Shown in pieces: positions 41,521 to 58,198 of a stretch of 64,000 bases of DNA. Position 1 is the first letter of the stretch; every line of letters starts with the position of its first letter. The notes beneath the pieces were generated by a model. The model was not told the origin of the DNA and searched no databases. It worked only from the letters and a program-made list of their open reading frames with translations. The stretch lies in the NCBI GenBank assembly GCA_035293765.1, contig DATGMF010000079.1:1-64000 (forward strand), read 5' to 3'. Both the position numbers and the translations under genes were made by a program. The stretch is from Ktedonosporobacter sp. (GTDB lineage Bacteria; Chloroflexota; Ktedonobacteria; Ktedonobacterales; Ktedonobacteraceae).

Positions 41521-42144
41521 ATGACGTATGACCAAATCATGGAGGCATTACAGCAAGAGGCCAGCCCTCAAGCAGTCGAAGGGATGGCCAGATTTGGCAT
41601 CAGAGGGACCCAGGTATTAGGCATTTCGATCCCTGTCCTGCGAAAGATAGCAAAAGCTGTGGGAAAGGATCACCAGCTCGCCTTGCAACTCTGGGACTCT
41701 GGTCTGCATGAGGCAAGGATTCTCGCCTCGATGGTAGCTGAGCCGCAACGCATGAGCGAGCAACAGATAGAGGCGTGGGTGAGTACCTTTGACTCGTGGG
41801 ATATCTGCGATCAGGTGTGTGGGAATCTGTTCGATAAAACGCCTTTTGCGTACCAAAAAGCCTGTGAGTGGTGTCAGCGAGAGCCTGAGTTTGTGCGCCG
41901 AGCGGGCTTTGTGATGATGGCAGAACTGGCCGTTCATGACAAAACCGCACCAGATGAAGCCTTTCTGCCATTTTTTCCCCTCATCAAACAATATGCGACC
42001 GATGAGCGTAATTTTGTGAAAAAAGCCGTCAACTGGGCGCTGCGCCAGATCGGAAAGCGCAATGCTCATCTGCGACAGTATGCATTGCAGTGGGCAGAAG
42101 AGATGAAAGTAGCCGCGCGTCTGCTGGAAGAAGTTGGTCAGTAG
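41521..42144 (+). CDS. DNA alkylation repair protein (AlkD/AlkC HEAT-like-repeat glycosylase family)
   Basis: ARFGIRGTQVLGISIPVLRKIAKAVGKDHQLALQLWDSGLHEARILASMV...WDICDQVC..LFDK matches the DNA_alkylation family. The ATG follows the ccbP-like stop directly. Confidence 0.75.
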   Translation: MTYDQIMEALQQEASPQAVEGMARFGIRGTQVLGISIPVLRKIAKAVGKDHQLALQLWDSGLHEARILASMVAEPQRMSEQQIEAWVSTFDSWDICDQVCGNLFDKTPFAYQKACEWCQREPEFVRRAGFVMMAELAVHDKTAPDEAFLPFFPLIKQYATDERNFVKKAVNWALRQIGKRNAHLRQYALQWAEEMKVAARLLEEVGQ

Positions 42145-42609
42145 CCGCGCCTGTTCCTCGCTATAGTGCTGCGGGATCTTGAGCCGGGTGAGCAGGTCGG
42201 GGGTGATAGGTTCGGGCAGGTGCGATGGTTCTGGTGGCTTTGGGGCCAGAAACTGTTCCCACTGCCTCTGCGACCGGTTCGTCTTCTGCTCCGGAGGAAT
42301 TTCAGGATCGAAGCCGCCGAGAAACTCCACGTCGAAATCGTCGTCGTAGGTATCTTCTTTGCGCTTCTTGATGGAGAGCAGGCTGACGTAGGGGGCTTGA
42401 AAGGTGTAAAAGATGCGATAGTCGCCGCAGCGGATGCGATGCAAACGTGGATCGATATATTTTAGCTGCTTTTTGGTTTTCGCGTCCGGCGTGGGATCTT
42501 CTGTGAGCAGATTGATCTTGTCGAGAATATGCAGCACCTCTTTTGGCGGCAGCGCCAACCATTCAGCGGTAAAACTGGGCTTCATAGAGATGGTCCATTG
42601 CTTGCTCAT
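42145..42609 (-). CDS. RelE/ParE-superfamily toxin-domain protein with C-terminal extension; 3' end undefined (possible pseudogene)
   Basis: LHILDKINLLTEDPTP..KQLKYIDPRLHRIRCGDYRIFYTFQAPYVSLLSIKKRKEDTY is a clear RelE/ParE motif. The ORF has no stop and continues antisense through alkD to 41617, so the distal part is probably artefactual. Confidence 0.4.
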
Positions 42610-42903
42610 ACATCGACCCTTTCCAAACAGACCTTCTGGCACCTATTGTGTCGATCAGGATGATTGGTCAATCCCTCCATAAAATTTTTACATGAAAAGC
42701 GTTTCATTTGCAATATAACATGTTATACTCATTCTCTGTTTTGCGTTGTCTGTATATTTTTTTATTCCAACTGCTATCTATCTACTCCAACGCTTTTCAA
42801 CGTATACCTACTGCTTTTATGCTTATCCTATCTATTTTTACAATTAAATAGTACAAATGTTTTATTAGAACTTATGTATCATATATAACATCAATACTTA
42901 TCT

Positions 42904-43067: not shown

Positions 43068-48265
<5,198 letters not shown>

Positions 48266-48266
<1 letters not shown>

Positions 48267-51235
48267 TGAATTTTACTGTTGGCTCGCTGGTCAAAGCACG
48301 CGGACGCGAGTGGGTCGTCCTGCCGGAATCCGATGATCAGGTGTTGGTCCTGCGCCCGCTGGGAGGGAGCGAGCAGGAAGTGACCGGCATTTATCGCGGC
48401 CTGGAGGAGGTGGAGGCGGCTTCGTTTGCCCTGCCCGATCCGCAGGCGCTGGGCGATTATCGTTCGTGTCGCCTGTTGCGAGACGCGGTCCGCCTGGGCT
48501 TTCGGACCAGCGCCGGTCCTTTCCGCTCGTTCTCCCATATCGGGGTAGAGCCGCGCCCCTACCAGTTTGTGCCGCTGCTGCTGGCCCTCAAGCTCGATCC
48601 GGTGCGCCTGTTGATCGCCGATGACGTGGGCATTGGCAAAACCGTCGAAGCCTGCCTGATTGGTCGCGAACTGCTGGATCGCGGCGAGATCGAGCGCATG
48701 GCAGTGCTCTGTCCGCCGCACCTGGCCGAACAGTGGCAGGTGGAACTGCGCGAGAAATTTCATATCGAGGCGGTGCTGGTGCTGGCGAGTACGGCGACAC
48801 AGCTTCAACGGACCTGCCGCTTTGACGAGTCGATTTTCGAGCGCTATCCCTTTGTGATCGTCTCAACCGATTTCATCAAAGCCGACCGCAGGCGCGACGA
48901 ATTCCTGCGCACCTGCCCCGAATTCGTGATCGTGGACGAGGCGCATACCTGCACGGATGCCGGCGCTGGACGCGGACGCCAGCAGCGCTACGATCTGGTG
49001 GCAAGTCTGGCTGCTCATGCTGAACGGCATCTGGTGCTGGTCACGGCCACGCCCCATAGCGGCAACGAAGCGGCCTTCCGCTCGCTACTCAGCCTGCTCA
49101 AGCCAGAGTTCGCGGCCCTGCCCGAAGATTTGACCGGCCAGCAGCATGAACGCGAGCGGCGCACGCTGGCGGCCCATTTTGTGCAGCGGCGACGCGCTGA
49201 TATCACCGCCTATCTTCACACCAATACTCCCTTCCCTGACCGCAAGGAGAGCGAGCAGCACTACACGCTCACCCCCGCGTACCGGCGGCTCTTTGAGCGC
49301 GTGTTGCACTACGCCCGCGAGACGATTAGCGATCCGGCGGATGGCAACAGGCATCGCCAGCGGGTGCGCTGGTGGTCGGCCCTGGCCTTGCTCCGCTCCC
49401 TGGCCTCCAGTCCGGCGGCGGCGGCTGCCACCCTGCGCAATCGCGCCAGCACGGCTGATACTTCCGACGAAGCTGAGGCCGACCGGATCGGACGCCATAC
49501 GGTGATGGATCTGCTGGACAACGAGTCGAGCGAAGGGGTCGATATTGTGCCGGGCAGCGATTACGAGGAGCAGCAGGCGGGCGAGTCAAGTTTGCGCAAG
49601 CGTTTGCAGGCGATGGCTCGTGAGGCCGAGGCGCTCAAAGGCGCGCAGGATGCCAAACTGTTGCAGGCGGTGAAGATCGTCAACGACCTGCTCAAAGATG
49701 GCTTTCAGCCGATCCTCTTCTGCCGCTTTATTCCCACGGCTGAATATGTGGCGCAGGAGCTGAGTACGCGCCTGCCAAAAGATATCCAGGTCGAGGCGGT
49801 GACGGGCCTGCTGCCGCCGGTGGAGCGCGAAAACCGCATCCTGCAACTGGCGGAGCAGCCCAGGCGCGTGCTTGTTTGCACCGATTGCTTGAGCGAGGGC
49901 ATCAACCTGCAAGAGCATTTTAACGCGGTCATCCACTACGATCTTTCATGGAACCCCACGCGCCATGAACAGCGCGAAGGGCGGGTGGACCGCTATGGTC
50001 AGGCCAGCCCCCAGGTGCGCGTGGTGACGTACTACGGCCACGATAATCCAGTTGATGGCATTGTGCTGGAAGTCCTGATCAAAAAGCATCATACCATTCG
50101 CACCTCGCTGGGTATCTCGGTGCCGGTACCGGTCAATAGCGAGCAGGTGCTGGAAGCGATCTTGGAGGGCGCATTGCTGCGCGGCCATAGTAGCTCGCCT
50201 TCCAGCCTGCAAATGACCCTGCCGGGCCTGGAAGACCCGCGCGAGGAGCAGTTCTGGTTGCAATGGGAGGCCAACGCGGCCCGCGAGAAGCGTTCGCGTA
50301 CCATGTTCGCCCAGGAGAGCATTAAGCCCGACGAGGTTGCGGCGGAACTGGCGGCCATGCGCTCGGCGATGGGGTCCGCTATCGACGTCGAGCACTTTAT
50401 CCGCGATGCGTTGAGCGAATACGGTGCTGCCGTCTCGCCGCTCAACAATGGTGCGCTCCAGGTGGATTACAGCACCATGCGGGGTCCGCAACCAGCACAG
50501 AGCGTACACGAGGCTCGCGGCTTGAAAGAGACCCTTCAGGCGGTACTGCGCCACGATCAGAAGGACAGGCGTTTCAGGGCGCGCTTCGAACTGCCTGTTC
50601 GTGAGGGAGAATTGTATTTGAGCCGCACGCACCCGCTGGTCGAGAGCGTGGCGGCGTACGTGATGGATGCCGCGCTCGATTCGACGACTGGCAGCGAGAG
50701 CATCGCCAAACGCTGCGGTGTGATGCGCACCAGCCAGGTTGAGCGGCGCACCACTCTGCTGCTGCTCCGCCTGCGCTACCATATCGTGACCACGCAGCGC
50801 GGACAGGCTGAACGGACGCTGCTGGCCGAGGATTGCCAGGTGCTGGCCTTCCAGGGTTCACCCATGAGTGCCCGCTGGCTTGACGATAAAACCCTGGTCG
50901 AACGCCTGCTTGAGGCGCGGCCCGATGGCAATATCTATGAAGATCAGGCGCGGCAATTTCTGTGCCAGTTGCTTGCAGAGATCGAGCATGTGCAGCCATA
51001 TCTGACCGAGATAGCCGAGCAGCGAGCGCAGGAACTCGCGACCGCGCATCGCCGTGTGCGCCAGGCCGCCCAGGCGCGCGGCCTGCAATACCGCGTCGAG
51101 CCGCAAATGCCGGTTGACATCCTGGGCATCTATCTCTATTTGCCCAAGATCGCGTCAACCCCACAAGGCAAGAGCGAAGCACCGTCGTATCGACCTGATT
51201 ATGAGCATGAACGACCAAGATCGGCAAGGTCGTAG
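48266..51235 (+). CDS. SNF2-family helicase/ATPase (DrmD-like), translationally coupled to upstream gene (TGATG overlap)
   Basis: SNF2_N: RPYQFVPLLLALKLDPVRLLIADDVGIGKTVEA; DEAH box FVIVDEAHTC. Helicase_C: VLVCTDCLSEGINLQEHFNAVIHYDLSWNPTRHEQREGRVDRYGQ. Confidence 0.85.
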
Positions 51236-51389
51236 GGACCCGATTATATCGCGTCCGATTTATCGCCCGTCCCCGTTGGCGACCGGTCGGCAGCGAGCAG
51301 AAGTCGAAAAAGGAACGGGTTCGACAAGGGGAAAGGAGAGGCGATGGCGAGGGGGAGCGCTGAAGCGGACGCGATATAATCGGGTCGCT
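51236..51389. repeat. intergenic element with 27-bp near-perfect inverted repeats flanking ~108 nt (MITE-like or large RNA stem) between SNF2 and methyltransferase genes
   Basis: cgtagGgacccgattatatcgcgtccg (51232-51258) vs the reverse complement of 51367-51393 (cgtagCgacccgattatatcgcgtccg); 1 mismatch. Confidence 0.6.
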
Positions 51390-51469
51390 ACGAAGGCCCA
51401 AGGTCGCGTCGTTCCCAACCCATTGGCGTTCATCATCTTACATCACAACCTGGAAAAGGAAAAGTAGTC

Positions 51470-54400
51470 ATGGTAGCATACCAGAAGCGACAGCAAACCA
51501 TCTTCTCGACCATCCATAGCGAGGGGGCGATCCTGCCGATGGACCTGCTGCAACGCATCAGCGACCCGCAGAACGCCCAGCTTGAGGGTCTGACCCCCGA
51601 CGCCTATCACCTCGAAACGATCAAGCTGAACGAGGCGATTAACCGCGCGTGGACCAGCCTGCTGGGCGTCTGGCAGCGGTTCCGGCATGAACAGAAGCGG
51701 TTGACGGAGCACGAGAGTGGGACGACGCTGACACGCGAACGCTGGCTGCTGCCATTATTTCAAGAACTGGGCTATGGTCGCCTGCAAACGAAATCCCCCC
51801 TGGTGGTGAGCGAGCGCAGCTACGCGATCTCGCACGGCTGGGAAGGCACGCCGATTCACCTCGTGAGCTACAAGGTGGCGCTGGACCATAGCGTACACTT
51901 TGAGAGTGGCGCGCGGCGTAGCAGCCCTCACAGCCTGCTACAAGAACTACTCAACCGTTCAAAAGAGCATCTGTGGGGCATCGTCTCCAACGGGCTGCGC
52001 TTGCGTCTGCTGCGCAATAATGTGAGCCTGACGCGCCAGGCGTATGTCGAGTTTGATCTGGAGGCGATGTTCAACAACGAGGTCTATGCCGATTTTGTGC
52101 TGCTCTGGCTGCTGTGCCATCAATCGCGGATGGAGGGGGAGCGCCCGGCGGATTGCTGGCTGGAGAAGTGGTCGCAGGAGGCTCATACGACCGGGACGCG
52201 CGTGCTCGAAGATCTGCGCGAGAACGTCGAACACGCCATCAAGGAACTGGGCAGCGGCTTTCTGACCCACCCGGCCAACGGCCAGTTGCGCGAGCAACTG
52301 AGTACGGGGACGCTGAGCGCGATGGATTACTACAAGCAGCTCCTGCGTATCGTGTACCGCCTGCTGGTGCTCTTCGTGGCCGAGGATCGCGGCATCCTCT
52401 TCGACCCAGCCGCGCCCCAGTCCGCCCGCGAGCTGTACACCCGCTATTACTCGACGATGAAGTTGCGCTTCCAGGCTGACCGGCAACTGGGGACGCGCCA
52501 CAGCGACCTGTACTATGGCCTCAAGCTGGTGATGGAGAAGCTGGGCCAGGAGCGCGGCTGCCCGGAGCTGGGTCTGCCCGCGCTCAACGGCTTTCTCTTC
52601 TCGCCCAGAGCGGTCAGCGATCTTCAGGAGTGCCAGCTCGCCAACTATGCCCTGCTGGCGGCGGTGCGTCACCTGGCCTATACCGAACGCGGGCGCACAC
52701 GGCGCATCATCGATTACAAAAACCTGGGCTCCGAAGAACTGGGCAGCGTCTACGAATCGCTGCTGGAGCTGCACCCGGTCTTCCATCTCGATACCGGTAC
52801 ATTCGAGCTTGCCAGCGCCAGCGGCAACGAGCGCAAGACCAGCGGCAGCTACTACACTCCCACCAGCCTGATCACCTGCCTGCTCGACTCGGCCCTCGAT
52901 CCCGTGCTGGACGAAGCGGCGAACAAGCCCAATGCCGAAGCTGCCATTCTCAGCCTCAAAGTCTGCGATCCCGCCTGTGGCAGCGGTCACTTCCTGGTTG
53001 CCGCCGCGCATCGCATCGCCAAACGGCTGGCCGCCGTGCGCACCGGAGACGAGGAGCCAGCGCCGGAAGCGCGCCGCCACGCCCTGCGCGATGTCGTCGG
53101 ACGCTGTATCTACGGCGTGGACATGAACCCGATGGCGGTGGAACTGTGCAAGGTCAGCCTGTGGATGGAGGCTATCGAGCCAGGCAAGCCGTTCTCCTTC
53201 CTCGATGCCCACATCCAATGCGGCAATAGCCTGCTGGGCGCGACTCCGGCCCTGCTCAAAGCGGGCATCCCTGACGCGGCCTTTGAGCCGATAGAGGGCG
53301 ATGATAAGAAGGTCTGTGGGGAATTTAAGAAGCTGAACAGACAGCAGCGCGAGGGCAACGTCAGCCTCTTCCGCGAGGACCGCGGCGAGCCGATCTGGGA
53401 GCAGCAAGGGACGCTGCTGCATTCGATGCTGGAAGTTGAAGCGATGCCCGACGACAACTTCGCGCACATTCACCGCAAAGATGCCTCCTTTGACAAACTG
53501 CGCAAGTCGGAAATCTACCAGAACGCCCTGCTGTGGGCCAACGCCTGGTGCGCCGCCTTCGTCTGGAAGAAGACCGCCGAGATGCGCCCGCCGATCACCG
53601 ACGAAGAGTTCCGCGACATCGGCAAAAATCCCTTCACGCTCCCGGGCTGGCGCAAAGCCGAAATCAAGCGGCTGGCCGCGCAATACCAGTTCTTCCACTG
53701 GCACCTCGCCTTCCCCGACGTCTTCCGCGTCCCTCCCCGAGGTAAGCCGCCCGAGAGCGAGCAGGCAGACTGGTCCGGCGGCTTCGATGTGGTGCTGGGG
53801 AATCCGCCGTGGGAACGCATCAAACTTCAAGAGAAAGAGTGGTTTGCCAGTCGCCAACCGGAGATCGCCAATGCCGCCAACGCCGCCCTGCGCCGCAAAA
53901 AGATCGCGGCCCTGAAGGACGAAAATCCCGCGCTGTTCCAGGCATTTATGGACGACCAGCGCAAAGCCACCGGCGAAAGCCATATCGTGCGCGATAGTGG
54001 CCGCTACCCCCTCTGTGGTCGCGGCGATGTCAATACCTACTCGATTTTCGCTGAGAACATGCGAACAATCATCTCTTCTCAAGGGCGCGTGGGATGTATT
54101 GTGCCTTCAGGAGTGGCAACGGATGATACAACAAAGGTTTTCTTTCAAGATTTGATGCAATCCAGGTCTTTGCTTTCACTATATGATTTTGAGAATCGAG
54201 ATGCTATCTTTTCTGGAGTTCATCGAAGCTATAAATTTTGCCTGTTAACCTTAACTGGTTCGGCTCGCCCTGCCTCTCGTGGAGCAGAATTCTTCTTCTT
54301 CGCTCATGATACTGCCGATTTGCAAGAGAAAGAGCGGCGTTTTGTTCTCTCGGCCCGCGATATTGAGTTGCTGAACCCGAACACGCGCACTTGCCCGATC

Positions 54401-55468
54401 TTCCGTACAAAGAGAGATATGACAATCACAAAATCTGTCTATTCTCGTGTACCAGTGCTGATTAAGGAAGGCTCAACAGGGTATAACGTGTGGAACGTTT
54501 CCTTTGCCTCAATGTTTCATATGACAAATGACTCCCACCTTTTCCAGATGCGTGAGCAGCTAGAGAACGAGGGCTGGAGGCTGGTTGGCAATGCTTTCCA
54601 GAAGGATGGGGAAGTGTGCCTGCCTTTATACGAGGGCAAGATGATTTCACATTTTGACCATCGCTTTGCCGCTTATGGTGAGGAACAGGGAGACCATGAA
54701 AGTATAGCGGGTGCCGCGCAAAATGCTGACCCTCACAAGCTCAATCTGCCGCGCTACTGGGTGCATGCATCCCACATGCCGACTCTAACACAGCGCAGAA
54801 AGGTATTGCTGGCTTTTCGGAGCATTGCTCGCTCTACAGATATACGCACAATCATATCTAGTATTGTCCCCAATACTCCTTGTGGCAATAGCTTAATCGT
54901 CGCTTTAATTAATGAGCACAGCTCAAAACTGCTGTTTCTGCCTGTTTCTATCTCATCATTTGTGTTTGATTATATTGCGAGACAAAAGACTGGCGGAGCC
55001 AATTTAAACTTTTTCATCCTCAAGCAACTCCCCGTTCCTCCACCCGATACCTACAAAGCCGCGTGTGGGTGGGATCACCAACATACTATCGGCGAATGGA
55101 TAGTGCCGCGAGCGATGGAACTCACGTACACCGCCTGGGACCTCGCGGCGTTCGCCAGAGATTGCGGCTATGATGGGCCGCCTTTCAGGTGGGATGAGGC
55201 GCGGCGCTTCCTGCTGCGCTGCGAGCTGGACGCGGCGTACTTTCACCTGTATGGGATTGAGCGGGAGGATGTGGACTATATTATGGACACGTTCCCCATT
55301 GTCAAGCGCGGGGATGAGAAGCAACACGGGGAGTATCGCACGAAGCGGGTGATTCTGGAGATGTATGATGAGATGCGGCGGGCGATGGAGACGGGGGAGG
55401 CGTATCGGACGCGGCTGGTGCCAGAACCGGCAGGTGCGGGGGTGCGGCATGAGGGGAAGAACGAGTAG
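51470..55468 (+). CDS. large gamma-class N6-adenine DNA methyltransferase (DrmMI / PglX / type IIG-IIL family) with N-terminal unassigned domain and C-terminal TRD
   Basis: Motif I VCDPACGSGHFLVAAAHRI (~52966). Motif IV VVLGNPPWERIK (~53800). Motif order I then IV means gamma class; 1332 aa. The ~54080-55010 portion is markedly AT-richer than the rest of the gene. Confidence 0.85.
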   Translation: MVAYQKRQQTIFSTIHSEGAILPMDLLQRISDPQNAQLEGLTPDAYHLETIKLNEAINRAWTSLLGVWQRFRHEQKRLTEHESGTTLTRERWLLPLFQELGYGRLQTKSPLVVSERSYAISHGWEGTPIHLVSYKVALDHSVHFESGARRSSPHSLLQELLNRSKEHLWGIVSNGLRLRLLRNNVSLTRQAYVEFDLEAMFNNEVYADFVLLWLLCHQSRMEGERPADCWLEKWSQEAHTTGTRVLEDLRENVEHAIKELGSGFLTHPANGQLREQLSTGTLSAMDYYKQLLRIVYRLLVLFVAEDRGILFDPAAPQSARELYTRYYSTMKLRFQADRQLGTRHSDLYYGLKLVMEKLGQERGCPELGLPALNGFLFSPRAVSDLQECQLANYALLAAVRHLAYTERGRTRRIIDYKNLGSEELGSVYESLLELHPVFHLDTGTFELASASGNERKTSGSYYTPTSLITCLLDSALDPVLDEAANKPNAEAAILSLKVCDPACGSGHFLVAAAHRIAKRLAAVRTGDEEPAPEARRHALRDVVGRCIYGVDMNPMAVELCKVSLWMEAIEPGKPFSFLDAHIQCGNSLLGATPALLKAGIPDAAFEPIEGDDKKVCGEFKKLNRQQREGNVSLFREDRGEPIWEQQGTLLHSMLEVEAMPDDNFAHIHRKDASFDKLRKSEIYQNALLWANAWCAAFVWKKTAEMRPPITDEEFRDIGKNPFTLPGWRKAEIKRLAAQYQFFHWHLAFPDVFRVPPRGKPPESEQADWSGGFDVVLGNPPWERIKLQEKEWFASRQPEIANAANAALRRKKIAALKDENPALFQAFMDDQRKATGESHIVRDSGRYPLCGRGDVNTYSIFAENMRTIISSQGRVGCIVPSGVATDDTTKVFFQDLMQSRSLLSLYDFENRDAIFSGVHRSYKFCLLTLTGSARPASRGAEFFFFAHDTADLQEKERRFVLSARDIELLNPNTRTCPIFRTKRDMTITKSVYSRVPVLIKEGSTGYNVWNVSFASMFHMTNDSHLFQMREQLENEGWRLVGNAFQKDGEVCLPLYEGKMISHFDHRFAAYGEEQGDHESIAGAAQNADPHKLNLPRYWVHASHMPTLTQRRKVLLAFRSIARSTDIRTIISSIVPNTPCGNSLIVALINEHSSKLLFLPVSISSFVFDYIARQKTGGANLNFFILKQLPVPPPDTYKAACGWDHQHTIGEWIVPRAMELTYTAWDLAAFARDCGYDGPPFRWDEARRFLLRCELDAAYFHLYGIEREDVDYIMDTFPIVKRGDEKQHGEYRTKRVILEMYDEMRRAMETGEAYRTRLVPEPAGAGVRHEGKNE

Positions 55469-55564
55469 CAGTCTTTTTAGAAGGCGATGATGTGGGCATT
55501 CCCTCTGTGGCTGCTGTGATAGTCAGAGTATAATAGATGTGTCTATGGTAGAAAGGGATTGTGT

Positions 55565-58198
55565 ATGGCAACTCAGGGATCGCTAACCCGCGAAGGGATG
55601 CTTGCGGGAATGCAGCAGGCTCTTGATGAAGAGATCGCAGAAAAGATCGCCAGACCGAATATTAAGCATAGTGCCGTGGACGGCAAACTCGTTTCTGTAG
55701 GCAACGGCCAGTATATTTACCAGTTTACTTTGCTCGAACCCTGGACGCCCGACGATGATACGTCGCTCTCCATTGTGAACGCAGAAGCAAAAAGTATCAA
55801 GTGTAGCGTCGTTACCTCGACCGGCACCTTGCTGACCATCGCTTCAGATCAAGCATTGCCTCCAGCTCAGCTGAGCCAGATCAATCTGAGCGACGACTCG
55901 ACTGAACTCCTCAAGCGCCAGAAGGAAGCTTTGAAACATGTCGAGGAAGGGAAAAATCAGCTTGCCTCGAAATGCTTTGGCCTGATCGCGTATCGGTATA
56001 TAACCGCTGCGAGCGACAAACGCTTTGGAAAGTGGAAGCTGCGTAACAACCAATATATGGCGGCACAGAGGACCCTGGGCGGTGAGATCGCTTTTATTGT
56101 CGGCCCTCCTGGCACTGGCAAGACCCTGACGCTGGCCGCTATCGCCGCGCATAACAATATCGCCATCGATAATGCGATCATGAAGCCCTGTGAGTTGTGC
56201 AAAAGCGCGGGCAGGCCGGATCTGCTCAGAGATGGGCAGGTTGTGCGCTTTGGTGCAGTGCAAAAAGCCGAACTCAAAGATAATGCCGAGTACGCGGAAG
56301 TCTATCTGCCCAAAATCGCTCACTCCCTGGGCGTTGCGACCCAGGAGCGCCAGAAGGCCGTTAAAGCTGAATTGGATCAGATCACGCAAAAGCTGACAAG
56401 CATACTGCAACAGCGGCGAGGGAGCAGCGGACCATTAGAGCAGCAATTGAGCGAAATAACTGCTCAAATCGCGCGCTGGAATCAGGAACTGGCTCCCCTG
56501 GAGCAGGAAGGGCAGCGCCATATTGCCTCCCTGCAAGCTCAGCAGAAGCAATATACAGCAAACCACGGCCGCCTGCAACGGGAGGCTACTCAAGCCGGAC
56601 AGCAGCTTGCCAGGGCGAAAGCGCAAGAGGAGGAGCGGAAACGCGAACTTGAGCACTGGAAGCAACAGAAGCAGCAGACAGTGACACGGCTGGTTGAAGC
56701 GCGAGCGATGAGCGGTATCAAGCGTCTCTTCAAAGGTCCCAGCCTGAAGGCGCTGGAAGACCAGGTCGCGCAATGCAGCCATAAAGTCTATGTAACCCGG
56801 CAAGCACTGGATGCCCTTCAACCAGAAGTGAAGCGCGTGCAAAAGGCGTTTTCCCAGCACACGCAAGAGTTGGAGATGAGCGAGCAACAGTTAAAGGCCA
56901 TCCTGGAACAGTTACATACACCCACCGAACGAGCGCAACGAATAGCAGAGCTGAGGGAGCAGAAAGCTTATGCAGGGCAGCGAACCACCAGCATCCAGGC
57001 AACATTGAAGCAAAAGAAAGCAGGCGCTGCTGCGGAGACGCAAGCTTTGCAGGCTCAAAAGAACCGCCTGGAGACAGCGTTGGCGGAGCTGGATCAGCAA
57101 TTGCGAGACATCGAGAAGAGCATCGTCGAGAAGGCCCTGGTTGTTGGCACAACGCTCACCAAAACCTACATGAATCAAGCCGTTGCGAGCAGGCGTTTTG
57201 ATGCCGTCATTCTCGATGAGGTCTCGATGGCACCTATGCCGCTTGTCTATCTGGCAGCTACTCACGCCGAACGCTCCGTAACCCTCATTGGCGATCCACG
57301 GCAGCTCGCACCAACAGTCTCATCTGACAAGCCAGCGGCTCGGCAGTGGTTGGGCAAAGATATTTTCGATCTCAGAGGAATTTCTTTAGAAGCTGCCGAT
57401 CAACTTTTCCAGCATAGCATCTTGCTGAATGTGCAATCACGTATGCACCCTGACATTTCGCGTATAGCGAGGGAACTGATCTACGACGATAAATTGCATG
57501 ACGATCCAACATTGCCAAAAGAGGCGCAACCGCTGTTCCCACTGCCCACATCCCCGCTGGTGCTCTGTGATACGCAAGACGCTTCCCCGCTTGCAACACG
57601 ACCCTCTCGTGGGCGATCATGGAAAAATTACTATCATGCGCTCTGCTGCATCACTCTGGCGCGTAAGATGCTAGAGGAGCACTCCGATCTCAAGAAAAAA
57701 AGAAACGAACCGGCTATCGGCATTGTCACGCCTTATCGTGCGCAGGCGCAACTATTACAAAGCCTCTTGAAGGATGCTGGATTGCAAACCCATGTACAGG
57801 CGGGGACGATACACCGTTTCCAGGGCCTGGAATTTGAGATCATCCTATTTGATACGGTTGCCTCTACTGGCTCCCATGCGAGCGAGTTTATTGCTGGCGG
57901 CCATGGCTCAAATTCGATGCGCCTCTTGAATGTCGCGGTCACGCGTGCGAAACAAAAACTCGTCATCGTTGCTAATCCAGGCTTTATCCAGGAACAGTTC
58001 CAGGAGAGTCCCATCATGCACCAGGTTGTACTGATGGCTGCAGGAACTGCTACTATTCCCTCGCTCAATGTGGCGGGCACGTCATTCTCCTCTCTTGTCG
58101 CGAAAGCACGTCGTGCGCATCCAGAAGTCACTGCTCCAGAGGTGATCCTGGCTCTACTCGATATGAAATTTACGGCGCGTAAAGCGAGACCCATATAG
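55565..58198 (+). CDS. Upf1/DNA2-like SF1B helicase (AAA_11/AAA_12) with ~290-aa coiled-coil insertion between Walker A and Walker B
   Basis: Walker A FIVGPPGTGKTLT. Long Q/E/K/R/A-rich heptad region (~aa 230-520). Walker B VILDEVSMAP, III LIGDPRQLAPTV, IV VQSRMHPDISR, V IGIVTPYRAQAQ, VI LNVAVTRAKQKLVIV. ATG at 55565 with RBS gaaaggga; the track used an upstream TTG. Confidence 0.8.
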   Translation: MATQGSLTREGMLAGMQQALDEEIAEKIARPNIKHSAVDGKLVSVGNGQYIYQFTLLEPWTPDDDTSLSIVNAEAKSIKCSVVTSTGTLLTIASDQALPPAQLSQINLSDDSTELLKRQKEALKHVEEGKNQLASKCFGLIAYRYITAASDKRFGKWKLRNNQYMAAQRTLGGEIAFIVGPPGTGKTLTLAAIAAHNNIAIDNAIMKPCELCKSAGRPDLLRDGQVVRFGAVQKAELKDNAEYAEVYLPKIAHSLGVATQERQKAVKAELDQITQKLTSILQQRRGSSGPLEQQLSEITAQIARWNQELAPLEQEGQRHIASLQAQQKQYTANHGRLQREATQAGQQLARAKAQEEERKRELEHWKQQKQQTVTRLVEARAMSGIKRLFKGPSLKALEDQVAQCSHKVYVTRQALDALQPEVKRVQKAFSQHTQELEMSEQQLKAILEQLHTPTERAQRIAELREQKAYAGQRTTSIQATLKQKKAGAAAETQALQAQKNRLETALAELDQQLRDIEKSIVEKALVVGTTLTKTYMNQAVASRRFDAVILDEVSMAPMPLVYLAATHAERSVTLIGDPRQLAPTVSSDKPAARQWLGKDIFDLRGISLEAADQLFQHSILLNVQSRMHPDISRIARELIYDDKLHDDPTLPKEAQPLFPLPTSPLVLCDTQDASPLATRPSRGRSWKNYYHALCCITLARKMLEEHSDLKKKRNEPAIGIVTPYRAQAQLLQSLLKDAGLQTHVQAGTIHRFQGLEFEIILFDTVASTGSHASEFIAGGHGSNSMRLLNVAVTRAKQKLVIVANPGFIQEQFQESPIMHQVVLMAAGTATIPSLNVAGTSFSSLVAKARRAHPEVTAPEVILALLDMKFTARKARPI

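Follow-up and report, generated by a model that had tools for sequence, protein, structure and literature searches.

An AT-rich, probably exchangeable specificity module in the ArmB-like methyltransferase of a putative ARMADA type I cassette from Ktedonosporobacter sp.

The methyltransferase gene of a defence cassette from Ktedonosporobacter sp. (Chloroflexota), which we assign to ARMADA type I, contains a block of low GC content in its second half. This block is probably an exchangeable specificity module of the encoded ArmB protein, which is swapped throughout the family, is shifted towards AT and is ancient in the allele studied here; we put the probability of this reading at about three in four. 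The gene, armB, is located at positions 51470-55468 on the forward strand of the window, i.e. the whole stretch of 64,000 nucleotides (nt) of contig DATGMF010000079.1 (assembly GCA_035293765.1) that was analysed. According to its domains and predicted fold, it encodes an ArmB-like, PglX-like gamma-class N6-adenine DNA methyltransferase of 1332 amino acids (aa) in an intact open reading frame (ORF).

A sliding window along the ORF exhibited a GC content of 0.60-0.68 up to position ~53950, of 0.44-0.52 until ~55100 and of ~0.60 again thereafter. The best maximum likelihood (ML) fit of two breakpoints to the third codon positions places the low-GC block at 54014-55102 on the forward strand (aa 849-1211) with a log-likelihood ratio (LLR) of 62.8. 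Within these limits the GC content at third codon positions (GC3) is 0.48, compared to 0.80 in the rest of the ORF. The corresponding fit to all codon positions yields nt 54026-55027, with a GC content of 0.46 vs. 0.62 outside. When the codon order within the ORF was shuffled 300 times, the LLR reached at most 14.3 (mean 5.3), as against an observed value of 61.9, and the same fit applied to seven further long genes of the window gave values of 4.6-18.2. Because the GC contents at first and second codon positions change little in the block and the shift is carried by GC3, it is a matter of codon choice, not of amino-acid content; amino-acid composition as the cause of the dip is thereby ruled out. 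The GC3 minimum of the gene (0.30) is found at aa 876-925 on conserved catalytic motifs, and 3' of the block, at aa 1217-1332, GC3 is back at 0.72-0.78. Altogether three levels of composition are present in the window: the host DNA (GC 0.54, GC3 0.62), the island at 43-54 kb formed by the ARMADA backbone (43068-54013; GC 0.62, GC3 0.73-0.80) and the block (GC 0.47, GC3 0.48). Relative to the host GC3, the armB backbone thus lies above and the block below. Features of a site-specific shufflon or of phase-variable switching were not found: the window holds no second or silent copy of the module (tblastn), the flanks of the block carry only short repeats at chance level, and there is no recombinase nearby. 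Neither Rfam families nor repeat structure were detected in the block itself.

The window protein is identical to the 'N-6 DNA methylase' of a Ktedonosporobacter sp. metagenome-assembled genome (MAG), and the same 1332-aa protein is present on 8 contigs from several sources. It matches the Pfam families Eco57I with 74.1 bits (cut-off 25.3), N6_Mtase with 39.4 bits (20.4) and MmeI_Mtase with 28.6 bits (27). DrmMI models of PADLOC match aa 450-782 (E 8e-65), none of them covering the module, for which the best PADLOC match is a Type IIG model (aa 847-1190). A search of solved structures with the whole protein sequence gave only a marginal match, to motifs I-III of a Type I M subunit. The AlphaFold2 model, spanning aa 440-1332 (predicted local distance difference test score 84, predicted template modelling score 0.81), has its nearest folds, as found by Foldseek, in PglX/BrxX of the bacteriophage exclusion (BREX) system, CamA, M.BseCI, M.TaqI, LlaBIII and DrdV (probability 1.00, E 1e-12 to 3e-6). 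These matches, together with the model, identify the protein as a gamma-class N6-adenine DNA methyltransferase of the Eco57I / PglX-like type, for which N6-methyladenine formation is predicted.

The elements of the protein follow the gamma-class order, with DPACGSGHF at aa 500-508, NPPW at aa 778-781 and the target-recognition domain (TRD) at aa ~948-1206. The S-adenosylmethionine-binding motif I (D500-F508, 52967-52993; this and all following features of the gene are on the forward strand) falls in columns C499-F508, which are invariant in the family alignment. Catalytic motif IV, the NPPW read from the translation, is located at 53801-53812, with N778, P780 and W781 being invariant. It is followed by a helical insertion (aa 783-848, 53816-54013; helices at positions 349-403 of the AlphaFold2 model, aa 788-842), which houses the main 5' breakpoint zone of the family (aa 780-809, see below). 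Motifs V-VIII (aa 849-946, 54014-54307) occupy Rossmann strands at model positions 429-506 (aa ~856-945) and lie outside the TRD; they contain the invariant residues G852, N855, Y857, F860, E862, G872, G875, P879, G881, F891, L901, F907 and N909. The TRD itself (54311-55087) is beta-rich in the model, and the isolated segment is structurally similar to known TRDs of the HsdS / M.TaqI type. Its hypervariable core (aa 1066-1166, 54665-54967) exhibits a mean pairwise identity of 0.34 and zero invariant columns, compared to identities of 0.60 in the N-terminal part and 0.65 in the C-terminal tail. A C-terminal helix at model positions 768-780 begins at aa 1207, and the conserved C-terminal helical domain, delimited by GC3, alignment and model, extends over aa 1217-1332 (55118-55468) and serves as the 3' homology arm. 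According to the model, the low-GC block therefore begins with the final third of the catalytic domain and continues through the TRD, ending where TRD and C-terminal domain meet.

A first-pass annotation of this DNA had described a shift in GC content within a single ORF, with NPPW at ~53800 and a gamma-class layout in which the TRD lies C-terminal to the catalytic motifs. All of this is borne out, the quantitative GC profile being clearly non-uniform. The AT-rich segment had been placed at 54080-55010, which is inside the block but understates it by ~70 nt at the 5' side and ~90 nt at the 3' side. It had also been equated with the TRD; this applies to aa ~948-1206, but the first ~100 aa of the block are motifs V-VIII with their invariant residues.

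Full-length homologues can be aligned across the block with hardly a gap; identity to the window protein is 42-63% there, whereas the N-terminal part reaches 60-81% and the tail 64-85%. Mosaicism was studied in 186 full-length proteins, i.e. 17,205 pairs. The identity of the N-terminal part correlates with that of the C-terminal tail (Spearman coefficient 0.71), less with that of the module (0.53) and least with that of the hypervariable core (0.28). Extreme pairs depart in both directions: one has identities of 0.96 in the N-terminal part, 0.46 in the module and 0.87 in the tail, others combine 0.70 in the N-terminal part with 0.93 in the module, or 0.71 with 1.00. At nucleotide level, the genes of P0066 and P0092 are 93-99% identical in the backbone and only 41-69% identical at aa ~900-1190, where third positions are at chance level; both modules are AT-rich. 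The inverse pattern is found for P0002 and P0023, with identities of 63-82% in the backbone and 90-97% in the module.

Among 106 pairs whose backbones are nearly identical while their modules diverge, the 5' breakpoints fell at aa 780-809 in 67 pairs, with a second cluster at aa 880-899 (16 pairs), and the 3' breakpoints at aa 1200-1219 in 80 pairs. ML breakpoints of the 3' side were located at aa 1214-1216 in all six clear mosaic pairs, which gives a fixed recombination breakpoint at 55109-55117, at the boundary of the TRD and the C-terminal helical domain. The 186 representatives comprise 178 module classes compared to 111 backbone classes, and a single backbone class of 40 members carries ~40 different modules. 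Taken together, these comparisons show the module to be exchanged across the family as a DNA cassette and by homologous recombination. The exchange unit is the catalytic half following NPPW (motifs V-VIII) plus the TRD, i.e. aa ~783-1216. Besides this, two ArmB paralogues appear to be present on the contigs of P0072/P0103, P0053/P0079 and P0004/P0101. The modules of P0072 and P0103 are 0.77 alike, their backbones 0.62, which hints at a possible intragenomic module conversion between paralogous ARMADA systems.

The AT-richness of the module is not peculiar to the window. Genes were extracted from 80 genomes of many phyla, and the GC3 of the equivalent segment was below that of the flanks in 75 of 79 genes (mean difference -0.13, minimum -0.40). 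With the module limits taken from the recombination analysis, a dip was found in 69/72 homologues (sign test 2.6e-17), 24 of them below -0.2 and none of the 72 above +0.05. A weak dip or none (d > -0.05) was observed in 15 of the 72, mostly from very high-GC hosts and with intact ORFs. The mean GC3 profile of the family is negative from aa ~781 to ~1230, reaching about -0.12 at aa 1081-1110 and its lowest values, -0.18 to -0.19, at aa 1111-1170. Furthermore, in the 45 loci where non-cassette DNA amounted to 5 kb or more, the module was on average 0.048 lower in GC content than the neighbouring DNA (lower in 41 loci), and the backbone 0.046 higher (higher in 37 loci). The skew of the module is seen in hosts of 31-32% GC, too. 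In almost all hosts, modules are hence systematically AT-richer than both their own backbone and the host DNA around them.

The same structure is found in the armB gene of E. coli ARMADA II. In strain EDL933 this gene (L088:25526-30460) has its NPPW at aa 971, and its product is ~24% identical to the window protein. GC3 is 0.35 at aa 1103-1444 compared to 0.64 elsewhere (LLR 46). Of 5426 complete E. coli genomes, 526 contain the gene, often as piecewise matches only, and it was met on plasmids at 16 places. Five further alleles (L089-L093) are 96-100% identical to that of EDL933 outside the block and 41-79% inside, with mosaicism of sub-blocks, and the AT-rich block is present in all six alleles examined. 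In strain 2D, divergence and AT-richness both start at aa 961: at aa 961-1080 GC3 is 0.23-0.37 in this strain and 0.63-0.72 in the alleles sharing that stretch with one another. As these codons have a normal GC content in the other alleles and are AT-rich only in strain 2D, composition tracks the descent of a segment and not its place in the gene. The allele of CFSAN061761 is 94-96% identical to that of EDL933 at aa 1200-1320 but no more than 41-69% to both sides of this stretch, which points to two variable sub-blocks that can be exchanged independently of each other. The diversity of the E. coli island has been reported to reside mostly in armB (PMC13463889); this variation is located in the AT-rich block after NPPW, at a position homologous to that of the window block. 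In the ARMADA literature (bioRxiv 10.1101/2025.09.15.676423; PMC13463889) a TRD of ArmB, module exchange, breakpoints, specificity or a compositional skew are not described.

The sole close relative of the module of the window is found on contig L081, which was reached via P0121; window positions 51667-58168 and this contig are collinear and share 84% nucleotide identity. Through the block identity is 0.80-0.85, with a local drop to 0.69-0.75 at aa 1076-1125. The number of synonymous substitutions per synonymous site (dS) between the window and L081 is 0.70 in the block, 0.60 in the N-terminal and 0.45 in the C-terminal flank, and the ratio of nonsynonymous to synonymous substitution rates (dN/dS) is 0.18 in the block vs. 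0.10. L081 exhibits the same dip, with GC3 values of 0.74, 0.40 and 0.76 in the N-terminal part, the block and the C-terminal part, respectively. As dS is alike in block and flanks and the dip is the same, the block has been inherited together with its flanks since the split from L081, and it is under purifying selection. Compared to L001 (Ktedonobacteria bacterium brp13) and P0002, the synonymous sites of the block are saturated (proportion of differing synonymous sites 0.73-0.78), whereas dS of the N-terminal backbone is 0.9-1.1. These values are consistent with a replacement of the module after the backbone had split from the lineages of brp13 and P0002 and before the split from L081 (dS ~0.6-0.7). 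The armB gene of L081 (L081:1-3812) contains 1-nt indels dividing it into ORFs of 841 and 440 aa, and that of Dictyobacter kobayashii (L080:10001-14022) is split, too. Either these two are pseudogenes or the interruptions are assembly errors.

Crossovers in conserved stretches, shortly behind motif IV (aa 780-809 or 880-899) and where the TRD meets the C-terminal domain (aa 1200-1219), thus move the module between alleles and have created a very large allele pool. We propose that the module sets the DNA motif recognised by ArmB; its swap would therefore re-target self-methylation and ARMADA defence together. We infer this role by analogy with BREX PglX and with Type IIG/IIL, Type I and Type III enzymes; in BREX, the C-terminal TRD of PglX sets the motif for methylation as well as for defence (PMC11341690). 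The analogy is supported by the finding that ARMADA II defence requires the NPPW of ArmB, whose mutation abolishes protection (bioRxiv 10.1101/2025.09.15.676423). As to the AT skew, it may arise from an AT-biased mobile pool of alleles. Alternatively it might be that allele lineages are long-lived and experience AT-biased mutation without the homogenising, GC-favouring recombination of the backbone.

Several points weigh against this reading of the block. That the link from module to recognised motif is drawn by analogy is one of them. The ancient swap in the allele of the window is the weakest step, resting as it does on saturated sites and on two outgroup backbones, one of which (P0002) has itself had its module swapped; moreover, an amino-acid rate in the module that is ~2-fold faster predicts an identity of ~0.60 to L001, and 0.58-0.60 is observed. 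The 106 pairs from which the breakpoints were taken are phylogenetically non-independent. Most of the sequences come from MAGs or metagenome contigs, in which chimeric assembly of co-occurring alleles could mimic mosaics; this is unlikely as a general artefact, since complete E. coli genomes show the same structure. Finally, according to the family profile, the GC3 of the backbone is not raised beside the breakpoints. For this reason, GC-biased gene conversion in the homology arms, in its simple form, is not favoured as the cause of the skew.

The first-pass annotation had interpreted the block as the result of a recent, single replacement of the TRD from an organism of lower GC content, the composition being the not yet ameliorated signature of the donor. 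This would agree with the sharp compositional boundaries, with the exchange of precisely this segment in the family and with the saturated synonymous sites compared to L001 and P0002, and the same argument has been published for modA12 (PMC3311624). The replacement by recombination it supposed is indeed seen at family level, but neither its recent date nor the donor is upheld, and we regard such an import as distinctly improbable. The block of L081 is 80-85% identical at nucleotide level and shares the GC3 dip, its dS being close to that of the N-terminal flank; more than ~0.3 synonymous substitutions per site must hence have accumulated in each lineage since the event. When the segment was searched apart from its flanks, no donor emerged and L081 remained the closest module: the word-indexed module-only search and the full-length matches gave nothing above ~63% identity besides L081, an exhaustive HMMER search of 1.84 billion representatives gave 52-54% at best, all matches among 112 plasmid records (tblastn) were below 50%, and phages yielded zero tblastn matches. 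That 69 of 72 homologues are skewed in one direction, even where the host has 31-32% GC, cannot result from donors met by chance; each of the six E. coli alleles is skewed as well. Homologues thus carry the AT-rich segment too, yet with incongruent phylogenies. Another idea is that the block has diverged in situ and without any recombination, as a fast-evolving module whose synonymous sites drift to AT under the universal mutation bias. The somewhat higher dN/dS in the block fits such a course, and so do the drop in identity to L001, corresponding to a ~1.9-fold faster amino-acid rate, the occurrence of the skew in almost every host including those of low GC content, and the coincidence of the GC3 minimum of the family with its most variable sub-region. 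However, divergence in place cannot yield backbones of 93-99% identity around blocks with third positions at chance level. In addition, the dS of the block is not raised compared to L081 although its sites are saturated compared to L001 and P0002 and those of the flanks are not, and the GC3 minimum of the window gene lies on conserved motifs and not on variable residues. Taken as the whole explanation, in-situ divergence is improbable; AT drift of this kind may nevertheless help to keep modules AT-rich between swaps.

The recurrence of the dip at corresponding positions in different phyla and in ARMADA II might also be taken for position-specific selection for AT-rich codons or DNA, e.g. for translational pausing during TRD folding, for an internal promoter or regulatory site, or for silencing by nucleoid-associated proteins. 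We consider this very unlikely. The stretch at aa 961-1080 of the E. coli gene is AT-rich only in the divergent block of strain 2D, about a fifth of the homologues (15/72) do without the dip while keeping their ORFs intact, and the block contains neither an Rfam family nor repeat structure. A chimeric contig, in which two alleles or organisms occurring together were joined within the gene, comes to mind because the window stems from a MAG and the allelic diversity of the family is very high, but this is scarcely credible: the identical protein on 8 contigs and the L081 assembly, which was obtained independently and has the same backbone-module-backbone layout over 6.5 kb of collinear sequence, speak against it, as do the intact frame with all residues that are invariant in the family and the complete E. 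coli genomes of the same structure. Going beyond the exchangeable module we favour, one might regard the skew as a universal sub-genic hallmark of defence-specificity cassettes and not as a donor signature. Modules would then be ancient alleles under diversifying (frequency-dependent) selection which move whole across a pool spanning phyla, escape the homogenising, GC-favouring recombination or selection of the backbone and approach an AT-shifted equilibrium whatever the host. We put this forward tentatively and think it rather unlikely in so general a form. If true, a GC3 dip between conserved arms would predict, from sequence alone, where specificity determinants and breakpoints lie in ARMADA, and perhaps also in BREX, DISARM and Type IIG methyltransferases, and it would represent a natural experiment on what determines GC content in bacteria.

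The armB gene is the last of three co-directional genes which we assign to an ARMADA type I defence cassette (43068-55468) by their domains and order, compared to the published description. The first, armC (43068-48266, forward strand), encodes an ArmC-like helicase-nuclease of the YprA family with 1732 aa, comprising DEAD, Helicase_C and MZB/DUF1998 domains and a C-terminal DUF559 domain (Vsr-type); its best PADLOC match is DruE3-like. The second, armA (48167-51235, forward strand), encodes an ArmA-like SNF2/RapA (BrxHII-like) helicase of 1022 aa as called, matching SNF2-rel_dom and Helicase_C in Pfam and DpdE/DrmD/BrxHII in PADLOC. ARMADA stands for DISARM-related antiviral defence array; its type I has been defined by a YprA homologue with a C-terminal Vsr nuclease, a BrxHII-like helicase and a PglX-like methyltransferase (bioRxiv 10.1101/2025.09.15.676423), and in the window a YprA-type helicase with DUF1998 and Vsr nuclease comes first, followed by the SNF2 helicase and the methyltransferase. 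An armC orthologue lies immediately upstream in 65 of 81 homologous loci and armA is kept in 72, the order armC-armA-armB being retained in 65-72 of them across many phyla. The PADLOC library used dates from 2023 and is older than ARMADA, and the DruE3 match is consistent with the reported closeness of ARMADA to Druantia. In the two ARMADA papers cited here (bioRxiv 10.1101/2025.09.15.676423; PMC13463889), type II alone was put to an experimental anti-phage test. Two other identities were rejected on architecture. DISARM class 1 does not fit a helicase with DUF1998 fused to a Vsr nuclease in one protein; of the separate DrmA/DrmB plus the phospholipase D (PLD) nuclease DrmC expected for it, no PLD gene was found in the window. 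Druantia III was likewise set aside in favour of ARMADA type I.

As called, armA and the end of armC have 100 nt in common (48167-48266). The true start of armA is probably located downstream of this overlap, as the DpdE model aligns from residue 35. The gap between armA and armB, just upstream of the start of the methyltransferase gene, is filled by a 46-nt inverted repeat (51230-51275 / 51348-51393; 83% complementary, spacer of 72 nt), which occurs once in the window and matches nothing in Rfam. A regulatory hairpin or terminator between the two genes, or the remnant of a small mobile element, are possible identities.

Downstream of armB, an accessory superfamily 1 (SF1) helicase of 879 aa with AAA_11/AAA_12 and UvrD_C domains is encoded at 55559-58198 (forward strand); it is common only to the closest relatives and lies outside the conserved three-gene cassette. 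Its GC content of 0.54 is host-like, unlike that of the armC-armA-armB backbone, and the homology of the window to L081 stops inside this gene at 58168. Orthologues beside the armB genes of L081 and L085 comprise 1146-1175 aa and end in a PLD nuclease domain, which the copy of the window lacks. At the edges of the island neither tRNA genes, Rfam families, an integrase, a transposase nor other mobility genes were found. Two ORFs on opposite strands overlap upstream of it: that at 41521-42144 (forward) has a strong match to DNA_alkylation repair (7e-41), and that at 41617-42642 (reverse), with only a sub-threshold ParE_toxin match, is probably spurious. Among the armB neighbours of relatives are an IS4 transposase taking the place of armA upstream of P0066 (L082:111-1553), an IS605 OrfB/TnpB gene downstream of P0018 (L084:6280-7788) and a HamA gene with a helicase, resembling Hachiman, downstream of P0023 (L086:5218-7139).

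ARMADA was described only in 2025-2026, and its choice of targets is without a published account. The limits given here, aa ~783-1216 in the window and aa ~961/1081-1440 in the E. coli EDL933 protein, provide a testable map of the probable specificity determinant of ArmB. The alleles are very diverse: almost every cluster at 90% identity has a module class of its own. The natural breakpoints may be used as ready junctions for chimeras that re-target methylation and defence, as has been done with BREX PglX. The occurrence of the skew in hosts from 31% to 73% GC calls for caution in reading compositional islands as recent imports from a donor; AT skew could perhaps serve as a marker of specificity modules that needs nothing but sequence.

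Compared to known systems, the window protein shares with ArmB of E. coli ARMADA II the position of the AT-rich block after NPPW, at a protein identity of ~24%. ARMADA type I does without an obligatory ArmD; in the window an unrelated, truncated SF1 helicase follows armB. PglX/BrxX of BREX (PDB 8c45, 8q56, 9ewz) is only ~10% identical in sequence to the window protein, has long spacer helices after its TRD and acts with BrxB, BrxC, PglZ and BrxL and not with YprA and SNF2 helicases. For PglX we found no description in the literature of a natural cassette exchange with AT skew. DISARM class 1 likewise combines an SNF2 helicase (DrmD), a DUF1998 helicase and a DrmMI-type methyltransferase, but its DrmA and DrmB are separate and its nuclease DrmC is of the PLD type, whereas in the window the DUF1998 helicase is fused to a Vsr nuclease.

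The closest parallels to the exchange itself are found in the Type III modA genes of Neisseria and Haemophilus, which have conserved ends and a hypervariable recognition domain, too, and whose alleles are exchanged by horizontal transfer, both en bloc and as mosaics (PMC3311624, PMC1557822). The GC content of the DNA recognition domain of modA12 is significantly below that of its flanks, which the authors read as horizontal gene transfer (PMC3311624). ModA is, however, a beta-class enzyme with a central TRD, from two naturally competent genera and phase-variable by repeats, whereas ArmB belongs to the gamma class, exchanges a module that includes motifs V-VIII, lacks phase-variation repeats and occurs in many phyla. 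The 'domain movement' of H. pylori in Type I hsdS, Type IIG and Type III genes likewise alters specificity by a recombinational replacement of TRDs via conserved flanks, from allele to allele and from gene to gene (PMC3077401, PMC3467074, PMC3983042), but these events are intragenomic or intraspecies and often use hsdS repeats, unlike the window with its single module copy. The phenomenon is thus TRD shuffling, a class already well known. Specific to the present case are the newly described system in which it takes place, an exchange unit that starts just after NPPW and includes motifs V-VIII, and a broad AT skew in one direction; because the skew is broad and one-directional, we do not read the dip as the signature of a particular low-GC donor.

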